A model generated the notes under the pieces. That model had not been told where the DNA came from. It ran no database searches and saw only the letters and a program-made list of their open reading frames with translations. This document shows positions 33,546-59,592 of a DNA stretch of 64,000 bases, in pieces. The stretch comes from a virus (taxonomy: Duplodnaviria; Caudoviricetes), in the IMG/VR virus record IMGVR_UViG_3300028832_000096, one strand, 5' to 3'. Within the stretch, counting starts at the first letter, position 1; every line of letters starts with the position of its first letter. The position numbers were made by a program, and so were the translations under genes.

Positions 33546-35783
33546 TTAGGTTGCAGTAAGAGCAGCAGACTGAGGAAGTGCGATAAGGTCGATGGTGATA
33601 TCTTCGATAACGCCTGCGGTCCTGATAACAATCTTACCGATGACGGAGTTAGCATTGACGGAATCAAGTCCGTTGATGTCAGCTGCCATCGTGACATAGT
33701 AACCAGGGTCGTCAAGGTCTGTTCTACCAGGTACGTCTGCACCCTTAACAAGTGCACCGAGGTTAGACATTGAGTCAAGAATCGGTGTAACACCTGCGTA
33801 GAATCTATCATAAGCATTTGCGTTGCTATACTGATATGTGATTCCGATACCTACTCTATAAACTACATCCTGAATTGCGTTGAAGATATATCTTGTAGAG
33901 AGGTTTGCAAGAGCCTGATATGTTGCAGGAGGTACTTCAAATAATGTTGAGTTGCCCCAGATACCTGCACCTACTTCAGGGAGGTTTGTAATGACGTTAA
34001 GTCTGCAACCTTCTCTTGACTGCCACTTGTCTAAGAGGTCTTCAGGAATTGTGTAATCAAGCTTGCCGAGGTTGAAATTGGTCTTTCTAATTGTAGGAAG
34101 TGCCCACTCATACTGATTAGCCTGATTGAGAATCATTGACCTTGTAATCATAAGTGCAAGGAACGAAGGCGTAGCAGGTGCCGGTCTAGATGTTCCAACG
34201 TATGTATACTGACCCCAAGGAGCAAAGAGTGCAGAAGACGATGTGAAGAGACCTGTCTGACTTGCTAAATCATCCGAAGGTGTATATCTGCAAAGCTTCT
34301 GTACGTAACCTTCCTTTGTAGAATCTGAAGAATCAATCCAAACACCATCACGAGCTAAGCTCTTCGGAATGTCGAGAAGTGCTGTTGCGCATCTGCTGTT
34401 GTAAGCAACGTCCATCAGCTTAATGTGCATAGGTGAAAGATTGCCGAAACGCTGCTTAGGTTCTGTATCACCGAACTCGTAGAAGTTCTGGTCGTCCCAA
34501 GGAGAAATAACTCTGTTAGGATTATAAGTAAGCTTGTCCTTGAGCAGGTCTAATACCTTTGTAGCATAGCTGAATGTCCACTCTCTGAATCTAAGGGCAT
34601 AAGCTACGTTCTTGTCCTTAAGGTTAGTCTTAAGGTAGTTGAATGCTGTAATATAATCGATGTTAGCTAAAGCAGTATCTAACAATGCGTATCTAATCTT
34701 AGCATAATCCTGAGCTGCAGTAACGATATCAGCAATTTCATCTTCATCGTTCTGAGCTGCTGTATCTGAACCGCCTCCAAGCTGAATTGTAGGAACAACC
34801 GATGTTTCTGTGCCAACAAGTGTACTTTCCTCGTTAAGTCCCTTGAAGTTTGTGAATACGATGTAGTTAGACTCAACCTCACTTATATGAAGGATGTTAT
34901 CTGTAGCATTATCTACATCAAATACAAATGTGAGATTCTCAAGAGATGTTCTTACCTTAGAAGCATCTACTGCATAAACAATAGCGTTCCAATATGTAGT
35001 ACCTGCAGACTCAATCTTCTTAAGTGTTACTACAAGATTGTTACCGAATGTACCGGGATACTTTGCCTGGATATCAAGAGTATCTCCGCCGATGTTTACC
35101 TTTTCGTAATAGGTGTCTGCTACAAATGTAGGAGCAACTGTCTCTGTACCATCTTTTACATAATATTTAGTATAATTGGTTGCCCAATCGTCAGGCGCTT
35201 CACTCAGGAGCACATATTCATTATCTTCAAGTTCGTAATAGGTATCTACTGCAAATGTAGGAGCAGTTTCTCCTGTAACATGTACATACTTATCCTGAAC
35301 TACACCCTGTACTGCTACATAATCATCGCCGCTCTTTGTATAGTAACTTGCGTAATTATCTGCCCAATCATCAGGCGCAGAAGTTAATAAGTTGTACTCA
35401 AAAGAATCAGCTTCTGTAAACTGACCTAAAGCAGTTGCACCAGGGCAGAGTCTGCAAACAAGTACATCATATCCATTTGAAATGAGCGAAAGAGCTACCT
35501 GATAGGAATAATCCTTTGCTCTTCTGTAGTTGGAAGCAGGTCCTCTGAATGTTGCTACAAAAGACTGCAAACCGGTCTGTGTTGAGTTGAACCTTGTCCA
35601 TACAGTGTCTTCGAGTTCCAGCTTCAGTTTTTCCTCGTCGGTATAATCACCAGGAATATTACTCGGGTCTTCAAATGCGGGGCCCCAGCAAGCGGTGATA
35701 GGCAAGGCTACTGTGCAGTAGCTGGAATTGGTAACATTAATCGAATAGTTGTTGGAGATAGGATTAACTGTTATCTTTGCCAT
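33546..35783 (-). CDS. Tail sheath protein
   Basis: WGP, AKYPGTFGNNL, ALLDIP, ALFAPW, IWGNSTL...NLSTRY and IEDITIDL; codon usage consistent with high expression. Confidence 0.9.
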   Translation of the reverse strand: MAKITVNPISNNYSINVTNSSYCTVALPITACWGPAFEDPSNIPGDYTDEEKLKLELEDTVWTRFNSTQTGLQSFVATFRGPASNYRRAKDYSYQVALSLISNGYDVLVCRLCPGATALGQFTEADSFEYNLLTSAPDDWADNYASYYTKSGDDYVAVQGVVQDKYVHVTGETAPTFAVDTYYELEDNEYVLLSEAPDDWATNYTKYYVKDGTETVAPTFVADTYYEKVNIGGDTLDIQAKYPGTFGNNLVVTLKKIESAGTTYWNAIVYAVDASKVRTSLENLTFVFDVDNATDNILHISEVESNYIVFTNFKGLNEESTLVGTETSVVPTIQLGGGSDTAAQNDEDEIADIVTAAQDYAKIRYALLDTALANIDYITAFNYLKTNLKDKNVAYALRFREWTFSYATKVLDLLKDKLTYNPNRVISPWDDQNFYEFGDTEPKQRFGNLSPMHIKLMDVAYNSRCATALLDIPKSLARDGVWIDSSDSTKEGYVQKLCRYTPSDDLASQTGLFTSSSALFAPWGQYTYVGTSRPAPATPSFLALMITRSMILNQANQYEWALPTIRKTNFNLGKLDYTIPEDLLDKWQSREGCRLNVITNLPEVGAGIWGNSTLFEVPPATYQALANLSTRYIFNAIQDVVYRVGIGITYQYSNANAYDRFYAGVTPILDSMSNLGALVKGADVPGRTDLDDPGYYVTMAADINGLDSVNANSVIGKIVIRTAGVIEDITIDLIALPQSAALTAT

Positions 35784-46817: not shown

Positions 46818-47938
46818 TTACTGAATATCTTCAGGCTTAAGATAGATTGCACGAGAAATCTGGAAGGTGCAGGTAACATTTACCAGTCCGCCATCCTGAG
46901 ACATTTCGCCGTTGTTGAGTGAAGAAATCCAAGTACCAGGGCACTTAATAACGTCTCTTGCCTGTCCGCCAGTACCATCGTACTTAATAAAGTAAACTTG
47001 TCTCATATACTGAGAAGGAAGTCCTAAGCACTCTGTGAGCGGGTCATATACCTGCTTTCTCCAAGCTCTAAGAGCTTCAAGAACATTAGGTGTTGTGTAG
47101 CAGTTAAGTGTCCAAGAAACGTCATTGTAGCTGATTTTCTGAGGGAACTTAATCAAGCCGTTACCATAATGAACAGTAATTGCGTCCTGAGACTCTTCAA
47201 TTGCGCCAACTTCCTGTGTAGAAAGTGTTAACATATCAGAGAACTCAGCAGGGCTGGAACCATCCATGTTATAGATTCTGATTTCGAAGTTGTTCTTGTA
47301 CAATGTCGATAGGTAAGTCTATTGTATCAATGTTTCTGACTTTTCCCCCGACCCACACCGGACATGAGACTTTCACCTCATCCGGCGTTCCATCGTATTT
47401 ATAATTACTTCGAATCTAATATAAACACGACTAAAGGCCATCACTCCGCTAAATTATTATCAGTAGCATCATCGCTTCGACCTTAGCTTTTCAGTATTAG
47501 TTAATTAGCTTATTATTCTTCGACTAAACGCTGAACGCCTAATACCTTTCCTTGTTCCGAAGATTCTATCTTTGCATATATCTTTAGGTGCTTGCTTTGC
47601 ATAAAATAATTGAATATTAGATTTTTCTAATATATAGGATTTCATATTCCGCAATTTACTTTCCTACATTATTGTTATACGTTCATTCGCAAGTTCGTCA
47701 GCCTATTAGACATTCTCACCATGGATATTTTATAGACTCCCGACATTCTTTGCCGACTTCACCGAGCTTTATACATAAGTACTATGCATATCGGATATTA
47801 GAGAAATTACTTAATAATTTTCGAATCTTCAGTTCACCCTTAAGTGCTTAATCTTTTCAATTAAGAACAAGTCGCACGCGGAACATATGAATCAACACCT
47901 AACATATGGTTGGTGCCCATAGCTAATGGGGTGAACAT
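46818..47938 (-). CDS. Tail tube protein (T4 gp19-like), spliced: exon 1 47878..47938, exon 2 46818..47302, 181 aa
   Basis: Exon 1 is MFTPLAMGTNHMLGVDSYVP after AAGGAGG. Joining CCGC|TGTAC gives ...YVPLYKNNFEIRI in frame. I.V.YGN..IKFP, W..QVYD and PGTWI tube motifs. Confidence 0.85.
47303..47877 (-). mobile_element. ORF-less group II intron (bacterial class B-like), 575 nt
   Basis: 5' GTGCG; DV ACGCCGGATGAGGTGAAAGTCTCATGTCCGGTGT (47355-47388); DVI with bulged A at 47310; 3' AT; EBS1 GCGGAA (47647-47652) complementary to IBS1 TTCCGC. Confidence 0.9.
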
Positions 47939-48075
47939 ATAATGTATTCCTCCTTAATTTGAATTATTTTTGTAGCTTATCTACATTTCAATACAAGGTA
48001 CTGTATATTTAAAATTGATGACATCTAATATATAATAAAATAGTACAATAATTTTAAAGTTTGGAGGTACAATAA

Positions 48076-49752
48076 ATGCCCACAGGAATACCAGAAAAAC
48101 TCAAGCCATGTAAGATATGTAAAGAAATGTTTTTACCTGCAACTCCATCACAAAAGATATGCAAGAACTCACACTATGCGAATTGTCCAATATGCAATAA
48201 ACCTATGTTATGGAATACTACTAGAGCACCTGAACCTTGCTCCAAAGAATGTCGAAAAGAAAAAACAAGAAAATTCTATCAAGAAAAGTACAATGTAGAC
48301 CATCCAATGAAAAATGCAGAAGTTAAAAAACATTTCCAGGAAGCTATGAAAAAGAAATATGGTAATGAACATGCTTTACAATGCAAAAAATTTAAAAATA
48401 AAGCTATAGAAACGAACCGAAAGAAATTCGGAACAGATTGGGCATTGAGCAACAAAAATGTTCAAGATAAAAGAAAACAGACGATGTTAGATAGATATGG
48501 AGTTGAATGCCCTTTCAATATGAAAGACTATCAAGAAAAAGTTAAAACAACCTCTAATAAAAAATATGGTGTAGACCATCCATCTAAATCAGAATCGGTT
48601 AGAGAAAATATGAAGCGAGGTATGTTAGATAGATATGGAGTTGAATTTCCATCTCAAAACAAAGAAATATTAAGTAAAATGCAAGCAAAAAGGGCTGCTC
48701 ATATGGATGAGATTGTAGAAAATATTAGGGCAAGCTTTATACAAAAATATGGAGTACCTAATTGTTTTCAATCAGAAGATATCAAAGAAAAAATTGTTAA
48801 AACATGCATAGACAAATATGGATTTCCAAGTGCAATGCAAAGTGAAGAAGTTAAGAAGAAAGTATCTCAAACGATACGGGAAAGATATGGTGTTAATTGG
48901 TTTGTTCAATCTGAAAAATATCTAGATGCGCATTCGTATATATCTAAAGTAGCGCAACAATTTGCTAATAGATTAATTAGCCGAAACATACCTATATCAT
49001 ATGAATTTCCGTTAGATTCTTATAGATATGATATAAAACTAAATAATACACTAGTAGAAATTGACCCAACATACACTCATAGCATCTTAGAAAATCACTG
49101 GGGTCCAGGTTTAGATAAAGATTATCATAAAAATAAAACCGATGTAGCAAATCAAGCTAGTTTCAAGTGTGTCCATGTATTTAGTTGGGACTGCCAAGGA
49201 AAGATTATAAACATACTTAATCCTAACAAGATATGTGTAGATGATAGTGAATTACAAATATACGTGCTCAACAAAGCAGCAGCTACTAGATTTCTCAACA
49301 ATTACTCAATCCAAGGTAATTATAATAAATCAGCATATTACATAGGGCTAGTTAAAGATGATATTATTTATCAATTGGTAGCAATAGGTAAATCTAGATA
49401 TAATTCTGAATACTATGCCGAAATAACTAGATGGCAAACAAACCCTAACTACAAAATATCTAATGGATATTCTAAGATATTAAACTTTATACAATCAGAT
49501 GAATTCTTATCAGTTAAAAATGTAGTGTTGTACTATGATAAATCTAAACAATTCGAGGACGACATTACGACAAACATGGAGTATGTTCATGATAATCCTC
49601 CAATAATGATATGGTCTGACCAAGGAAACAAATTTATAACAGATAGAATATTTAAACAATATGGATATAAAGGAATTACTAATGAATTAGATATGATAAA
49701 AATGGGTTGGCGTCCTGTATATAACTGCGGATACAGTGTTTATAAGATTTAA
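48076..49752 (+). CDS. Free-standing putative homing endonuclease (Zn fingers + 9 KYG repeats + PD-(D/E)XK/Vsr-like + C-terminal domain)
   Basis: CKIC, CPIC and CSKEC; ~23-aa (K/R)YGV..P repeats; YDIKL...VEID...YHKNK...VHVF.WD; GGAGG RBS; the only long + strand gene. Confidence 0.75.
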   Translation: MPTGIPEKLKPCKICKEMFLPATPSQKICKNSHYANCPICNKPMLWNTTRAPEPCSKECRKEKTRKFYQEKYNVDHPMKNAEVKKHFQEAMKKKYGNEHALQCKKFKNKAIETNRKKFGTDWALSNKNVQDKRKQTMLDRYGVECPFNMKDYQEKVKTTSNKKYGVDHPSKSESVRENMKRGMLDRYGVEFPSQNKEILSKMQAKRAAHMDEIVENIRASFIQKYGVPNCFQSEDIKEKIVKTCIDKYGFPSAMQSEEVKKKVSQTIRERYGVNWFVQSEKYLDAHSYISKVAQQFANRLISRNIPISYEFPLDSYRYDIKLNNTLVEIDPTYTHSILENHWGPGLDKDYHKNKTDVANQASFKCVHVFSWDCQGKIINILNPNKICVDDSELQIYVLNKAAATRFLNNYSIQGNYNKSAYYIGLVKDDIIYQLVAIGKSRYNSEYYAEITRWQTNPNYKISNGYSKILNFIQSDEFLSVKNVVLYYDKSKQFEDDITTNMEYVHDNPPIMIWSDQGNKFITDRIFKQYGYKGITNELDMIKMGWRPVYNCGYSVYKI

Positions 49753-59523: not shown

Positions 59524-59592
59524 CTGTTTATGATACCTTTTTGTAATTTTGGTTTTGTTATCACTAATAAAGGTTAAACAAAATAAAAAAGA

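Follow-up and report, generated by a model that had tools for sequence, protein, structure and literature searches.

Sequence and comparative evidence for an ORF-less group IIB intron in the tail tube gene of a Caudoviricetes phage

A tail tube gene divided by an intron

The locus lies in a 64,000-nt stretch of phage DNA (the window) from a Caudoviricetes record, IMGVR_UViG_3300028832_000096 (G000; 79.8 kb, about 53% complete). On the minus strand, a tail tube gene is divided by a 575-nt group II intron that runs from GTGCG at its 5' end (47877) to AT at its 3' end (47303). A putative homing endonuclease gene stands head-to-head with the tube gene, as a neighbour outside the intron.

Table 1. 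Features of the tail tube locus (positions in the window).
Feature	Position	Strand	Evidence or remark
Free-standing putative homing endonuclease (DUF7487)	48076..49752	+	Pfam E 1.7e-42; PHROG homing endonuclease E 3.6e-45
Candidate late-promoter motif, ACCTT.TAT type	47991..48000	-	motif hits; similar upstream of relatives' tube genes
Shine-Dalgarno AAGGAGG, tube gene	47949..47955	-	-12.1 kcal/mol
Exon 1, 61 nt (codons 1-20 and one base)	47878..47938	-	IBS1 TTCCGC 47878-47883
Intron	47303..47877	-	ORF-less group IIB (class B-derived), 575 nt
Domain I, reduced	47551..47871	-	alignment with 42 other class B introns; sister loop variants
EBS1 GCGGAA, delta U just before	47647..47652	-	homologous position covaries with exon -1 to -6 in class B introns
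EBS3 (A), opposite first base (U) of exon 2	47597	-	column 100% complementary to IBS3 in class B introns
Domain II	47493..47546	-	hand-built structure on sisters
J2/3 AGC	47486..47488	-	sequence and class B alignment
Domain III	47432..47485	-	3 compensatory pairs, distal stem
Domain IV, 12-bp hairpin	47392..47431	-	16-nt loop 47404-47419
Domain V, CGC triad 47385-47387, GAAA loop	47355..47388	-	Rfam match
Domain VI, bulged branch A 47310	47305..47352	-	Rfam match and sister structure
Exon 2, 485 nt, tail tube	46818..47302	-	candidate DIV-loop partner 47280-47290

The intron was recognised by two Rfam models, Intron_gpII over domains V and VI (47303-47390, minus strand, 57.5 bits, E 1.2e-8) and group-II-D1D4-5 over the core of domain I (47729-47837, minus strand, 63 bits, E 4.7e-11). 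Its ends agree with the GUGYG and AY termini of group II introns, the insertion is missing from homologous alleles, and all six domains were found, with a catalytic domain V and a bulged A in domain VI. A 4-nt AARC bulge at epsilon' (AAGC, 47766-47769) and an EBS3-IBS3 pairing are consistent with subgroup IIB, and the CGC triad together with a double-stem insertion near the 5' end are RNA traits of Zimmerly class B (criteria from PMC4024640). Class B is defined by the reverse transcriptase (RT) in domain IV, and the longest stop-free run within the 575 nt is 52 codons; we therefore describe the intron as class B-derived rather than as a mobile class B member. On these sequence features the element is confirmed as an ORF-less group IIB intron. 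The original prediction, made from the letters alone, had named both termini and boundaries, the class B-like domain V, the branch A eight nucleotides from the 3' end (A47310) and the absence of an RT/maturase ORF, all of which held; the domain IV hairpin, put at 47393-47430, is one base longer at either side. No other intron was found within the window.

Removal of the intron joins 61 and 485 nt into a 546-nt frame for a 181-residue protein, with GTTCCGC followed by TGTACAAG at the predicted ligated junction, while the unspliced RNA reaches a stop after 25 codons. The predicted in-frame product is corroborated by the intron-less alleles L001 and L002, which carry the exon-1 peptide and align with 90.6% identity over residues 1-181 without a gap. 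It had been argued that homologues without this peptide would speak against splicing; the full N-terminus was present at the same spacing in 63 of 120 database homologues, and residues 1-21 contain seven invariant columns among 64 homologues, the exon-1 residues being among the most conserved, so that exon 1 is probably needed. A Shine-Dalgarno sequence stands only before the exon-1 ATG, as predicted, with anti-SD pairing of -12.1 kcal/mol at ATG 47938 compared with -1.1 at TTG 47303 and -1.3 at ATG 47267. A tube made from exon 2 only was rejected on both counts, namely the missing exon-2 Shine-Dalgarno and the conserved N-terminus. Together these observations support the earlier claim that a full-length tube would depend on splicing out the intron.

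The assignment of the product as a tail tube was likewise sustained. Exon 2 matches the PHROG tail tube family (E 5.7e-12), and a modelled homologue (P0002, 88% identical) was matched by Foldseek to the KP1 and T4 gp19 tubes (E 1e-7 to 1e-6). Cultured Bacillus and Listeria phages HSE3, LIS04 and SP-15 have matching proteins annotated as tail tubes, and in L029 the tube gene lies directly behind a sheath-like gene (weak Pfam match). Both the fold, through the P0002 model, and the linkage to a sheath are therefore those of a T4 gp19-like tube; a PDB sequence search with the tube gave spurious matches only. The gene is the sole tube homologue in G000. From the tube relatives, the kin of the intron and sample names, the host is inferred to be a rumen member of the Bacillota. 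Compared with L029, the tail sheath gene of the window (33546-35783, minus strand, 745 aa) carries about 120 aa of extra in-frame sequence, which is repetitive and not intein-like.

The original prediction also listed a 'class A promoter', its own label for the ACCTT.TAT-type motif upstream of exon 1. This motif has 12 matches on the minus strand against 3 on the plus strand, mostly 30-60 nt 5' of ORF starts, and is a candidate phage-specific late promoter; sigma70-like promoter matches were at chance level only. Recurring minus-strand sites lie at 59575, 54888, 50824, 48000, 44836, 39664, 27812, 22637 and 5118. Many unrelated minus-strand ORFs in 38949-61476 start with a leader of the MKxY(I/V)K(A/S)S type.

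Anatomy of a reduced intron

Domain I retains the class B double-stem insertion, the epsilon' AAGC bulge, the zeta receptor and the kappa loop, and lacks the IC2 arm (58 positions in the Rfam model, one in the intron), the EBS2 arm and alpha/alpha'. J2/3 would supply the gamma A, which in group II introns pairs with the terminal U of the intron. EBS1, EBS2 and EBS3 were located by exon-intron column covariation across 43 class B introns; EBS1 of the present intron was placed by its flanking motif, a large deletion having made the aligner misplace this stretch. The predicted pairing of GCGGAA with the exon end TTCCGC is upheld; the motif context is that of EBS1 in RT-encoding class B introns, and covariation of this position with the exon was also seen in other reduced phage introns. 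EBS2-IBS2, typical of IIB introns, is absent, its arm being replaced by a continuous covarying stem, and exon positions -8 and -11 to -13 differ among sister alleles. The sequence TATGAA after EBS1 complements exon -14 to -9 and was rejected as an EBS2, for all class B introns carry it unchanged regardless of their exon. For alpha-alpha', likewise typical of IIB, no common pairing was found, both loops being short and variable.

The intron nests among RT-encoding class B introns with 66-69% core identity, its nearest RT-encoding kin being class B introns of gut Clostridia and of their mobile elements. It resembles those of Lachnospiraceae and Oscillospiraceae (L076, L083, L166) in its 5' sequence, double-stem insertion, domains II, III, V and VI and a DIVa-like motif, whereas introns of that type are about 2.7 kb long, encode an RT of 630-660 aa and have full IB/alpha, IC2 and EBS2 elements. 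As judged from this alignment, four elements have been lost from the intron: the ORF, the IC2 arm, EBS2 and alpha-alpha'.

Sister copies, inheritance and other phage introns

A search for sister introns, which had been proposed, found the intron again in ten relatives, at an unchanged position (L004/L165, which are probably one phage, L150, L151, L153-155, L157, L171, L172 and L174). Full-length sister introns are 92-96% identical between lineages, exon 2 of intron-bearing lineages 69-78% and its four-fold sites about 35-60%, while the peripheral free loops of the introns exist in 6-9 variants. The variable loops argue that the 92-96% identity reflects selection more than youth and, taken with the four-fold sites, that the intron is old yet conserved; a recent horizontal sweep is weakened as an explanation, the free loops being saturated and the trees without conflict. 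A hand-built structure on 12 sister sequences had 99.8% of cells paired and 10 two-sided compensatory pairs; none of 500 shuffles scored as high, and slid versions were about 40% paired, although the structure was drawn on the query and is favoured over them for that reason. IBS1 faces EBS1 without mismatch in all seven distinct intron-bearing junctions, which represent about five independent lineages (plus L165; one G.U), and in 0 of 35 intron-less junctions. Since helices stay paired and the exon partner of EBS1 is preserved, the pattern argues that the intron is under selection to splice.

The intron-bearing alleles fall within a single 17-row clade that also includes six intron-less rows, and monophyly of the intron-bearing alleles is rejected (AU p 4.6e-6). 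No conflict was seen between the intron and exon trees. Certain introns from different exon clades match each other as closely (0.96) as introns of one clade do, which leaves room for some lateral exchange. Between clades the exon flanks diverge right outside IBS1 and +1, and the near-identical phages L001 and L002 are without the intron. One gain followed by several clean losses or exchanges would be the simplest reading. Four intron-only pattern scans recovered copies at the tube site alone, with none elsewhere in this gene or in any other.

Separate ORF-less class B-type introns occur in two complete jumbo phages, three in G042 (357 kb) and two in G044 (394 kb), neither of which has an RT. 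Those of G042 comprise two related introns whose 5' ends are the same, one of 766 nt in a capsid-like gene (which, read from the junction, looks like the major capsid gene) and a reduced one of 651 nt in the tail tube gene (L187 and L188), and a third in an ATPase-like gene (L184). The G042 tube gene matches the PHROG tail tube family and lies behind sheath genes, and its intron has EBS1 AGTGGT opposite ACCACT. Upstream of its group II intron, the G042/G043 tube gene apparently contains another insertion, about 300 nt long (L179:4707-5006). The two G044 introns (L182 and L186) are diverged, lie in different genes and have a common 13-nt domain IV loop, GTAACTCGAGAAT. Several jumbo-phage introns also lack IC2 and the EBS2 arm, with a domain IV of 24-52 nt, in one case a bare 24 nt. 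In the tree they do not group with the present intron, so that the shared reduction looks convergent; a sister relation to the G042 tube intron likewise found no support there.

The premise of rarity behind the original prediction is outdated. In Merk, Jones and Eddy (2025; PMC12350094), ORF-less group IIB introns are described in PALS_2, Internexus, LPJP1 and c-st, 6 of 20 phage group II introns are ORF-less, several in essential genes, and 9,229 IMG/VR genomes with hits are listed, among which the present record may be. Those introns are likewise phage-borne and 580-690 nt long, with a D1D4-5 match, an AT end and, in some, a CGC triad; they sit in virion RNA polymerase, terminase and minor tail protein genes rather than in the major tube gene, whereas the present intron lacks alpha-alpha', EBS2 and IC2 and has ten sister copies that indicate long conservation. 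It does not group with the LPJP1 and PALS_2 introns tested, which keep alpha-alpha'. The ORF-less intron C.te.I1 of Clostridium tetani is also class B-derived, has the CGC triad, has lost EBS2 and adjacent stems, and has no related RT found in its genome (PMC3919590, PMC4024640). In C.te.I1 the 5' site is shifted, splicing is hydrolytic with no bulged A, the 3' exons are alternative and alpha-alpha' is retained; the junctions of the present intron, by contrast, are canonical, and it possesses a branch A as well as EBS3. Self-splicing introns also interrupt a tail tube gene in Staphylococcus phage Twort (orf142, as cited in PMC11878797), there of group I, here of group II; like orf142, relatives of the present tube gene carry group I-like introns, here ORF-less.

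Splicing, persistence and meaning

We think it somewhat probable that the intron is an old splicing-only relic, inherited with its gene, that splices without a maturase of its own and is kept because a splicing-dead copy gives no tails. An RT-encoding class B intron of a Clostridia-type gut host would have entered an ancestral phage once, by reverse splicing between TTCCGC and U at tube codon 21, then lost its ORF and several peripheral arms and, as the trees suggest, been passed on mainly with the tube gene for splicing only. In late transcription the precursor would fold, with EBS1 and EBS3 setting both junctions; domain V would catalyse branching at A47310, and the ligated mRNA would encode the 181-aa tube. 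Splicing would most likely proceed by the intron's own ribozyme activity, at most with general RNA chaperones and no cognate maturase. Selection would retain the intron not for its usefulness but for the cost of failed splicing, and clean loss would have occurred in some lineages.

The search for an RT fits this reading. None was found in G000, which is about 53% complete, and RT-encoding group II introns are absent from 41 related records, of which 17 are at least 90% complete. The one RT in those records (L175, in G011; 378 aa, with a YMDD motif and without adjacent group II RNA) is possibly a diversity-generating retroelement. RT-free jumbo phages with ORF-less introns and the precedent of C.te.I1, which lacks EBS2 and self-splices robustly (PMC4024640, PMC3919590), favour unaided splicing. 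The missing alpha-alpha' is a counter-point, for its loss may impair folding at cellular Mg2+, and the DIVa-like motif in the invariant domain IV loop suggests a protein ligand.

These points lead to an alternative that we regard as rather unlikely, in which a non-autonomous intron needs a class B maturase/RT, from the host or the missing part of the phage and bound at the domain IV loop, for splicing and occasional retrohoming. Class B RTs are common in gut Clostridia. Of 26 RT-encoding class B introns, 21 contain the DIVa motif that the loop matches (0.6 on average after shuffling; shuffled copies of the query's own loop match in 0.2% of cases). The loop is invariant in 10 of 11 sisters while other loops vary; the 13-nt loop shared by the two G044 introns has the same core, and flanks that diverge just beyond IBS1 and +1 fit an absence of co-conversion. 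DIVa is the maturase site in IIA introns and mobilisation in trans has been demonstrated in T. elongatus (PMC2882425), and bacterial genomes with ORF-less introns nearly always hold a related RT (PMC4424553). However, only the 3' strand of the DIVa hairpin remains, the copies recovered lie at one site, the 41 related records hold no RT-encoding group II intron, and dependence of an essential gene on a patchy host element would be costly.

The same loop may have another partner. It is complementary to exon 2 positions +13 to +23 over 10 bp (-10.9 kcal/mol), its best partner in the whole transcript; pairing at least as good is reached by 0.35% of windows across the genome and by 0.7% of loops after shuffling. 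A one-base insertion relative to the ancestral DIVa motif strengthens the duplex from -7.8 to -10.9 kcal/mol. The paired exon codon is TTC in 8 of 9 intron-bearing alleles and at 17 of 37 positions elsewhere in the same genes, although the pairing was found post hoc and kinship inflates these counts. Intron-less clade members are often complementary too, and as a general trait the pairing was rejected, with nothing similar in six other ORF-less phage introns. We know of no extra exon-binding site of this kind in group II introns, and a limited literature search found none. A protein-independent minimal IIB ribozyme that reuses its old maturase-binding loop to hold the 3' exon, in place of EBS2, alpha-alpha' and the maturase, is accordingly a doubtful proposition, to be treated as a lead.

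The first 72 nt of the tube gene are an intron hot spot, for other alleles carry group I-like inserts without ORFs at nt 23/24, 30, about 48 and 72; L150 and L151 have both the group II intron and a group I-like intron 38 nt upstream. The inserts at nt 23/24 (L003:2559-2965, also L005, L013, L038, L047, L150-L152 and L156) have weak Rfam scores only. Splicing them in frame with a terminal G requires a 5' splice site after a G, and the U pairing with the guide G is intron +1, not exon -1, a non-canonical junction either way. Collaborative homing (mechanism in PMC3984707) may account for the hot spot: the free-standing nuclease would cut intron-less tube genes near their start, and the group II intron and the group I introns alike would spread or persist by breaking the cut site. 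Five intron sites within 72 nt agree with this, as does a divergent endonuclease-like ORF directly upstream in each of the 13 intron-bearing lineages whose sequence reaches far enough, compared with about 12 of 18 that lack the intron (counts by eye, uncorrected for kinship), and a CCC codon common to 4 of 5 intron-less lineages next to the query hints at short-haplotype exchange. Yet nucleases of about 270 and about 560 aa each stand beside intron-bearing and intron-less alleles, and the sister alleles L157 and L172 have different types, so strict coupling of intron and nuclease was rejected; there is also no long co-conversion tract. We judge homing as the explanation distinctly unlikely; it would account for persistence rather than splicing and is compatible with the splicing-only relic. 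Downstream of the tube gene, L004, L005, L150 and L153 have ORFs of about 690-800 aa that join an endonuclease-like N-terminal part to an N6/N4 methyltransferase domain.

The original prediction further proposed a conditional gate on virion production. Conditional splicing has been discussed for other introns, and a domesticated switch, its splicing efficiency set by conditions or a late factor that times tail assembly, would suit a late essential gene, long persistence and a conserved domain IV loop. We hold this to be highly improbable: close relatives, including the near-identical L001 and L002, are without the intron, which was lost several times, no aptamer, other Rfam match or sensor and regulatory feature bearing on it was found, and ordinary purifying selection can explain the conservation. 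A regulatory role is thus unsupported.

Several elements of this picture were already known, namely ORF-less IIB phage introns (PMC12350094), tail tube introns (Twort) and EBS2-less class B self-splicing (C.te.I1). The extreme reduction and long persistence of the tube intron are new, as is the independent occurrence of ORF-less class B introns in the tube and capsid-like genes of jumbo phages that have no RT; possible pairing of the invariant domain IV loop with the 3' exon is new as a lead only. Such introns conceal the N- or C-termini of tube and capsid proteins from gene callers: about half of the best 120 tube homologues were called without the conserved N-terminus, some owing to introns. 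According to reviews, group II introns that lack an ORF and are not mobile are short-lived in bacteria (PMC4424553); here one has persisted in an essential phage gene while synonymous sites neared saturation, as organellar splicing-only introns do. The separate class B introns of large phages, with the same reductions, form a natural series from which to learn what a IIB ribozyme can do without and how introns become independent of maturases.
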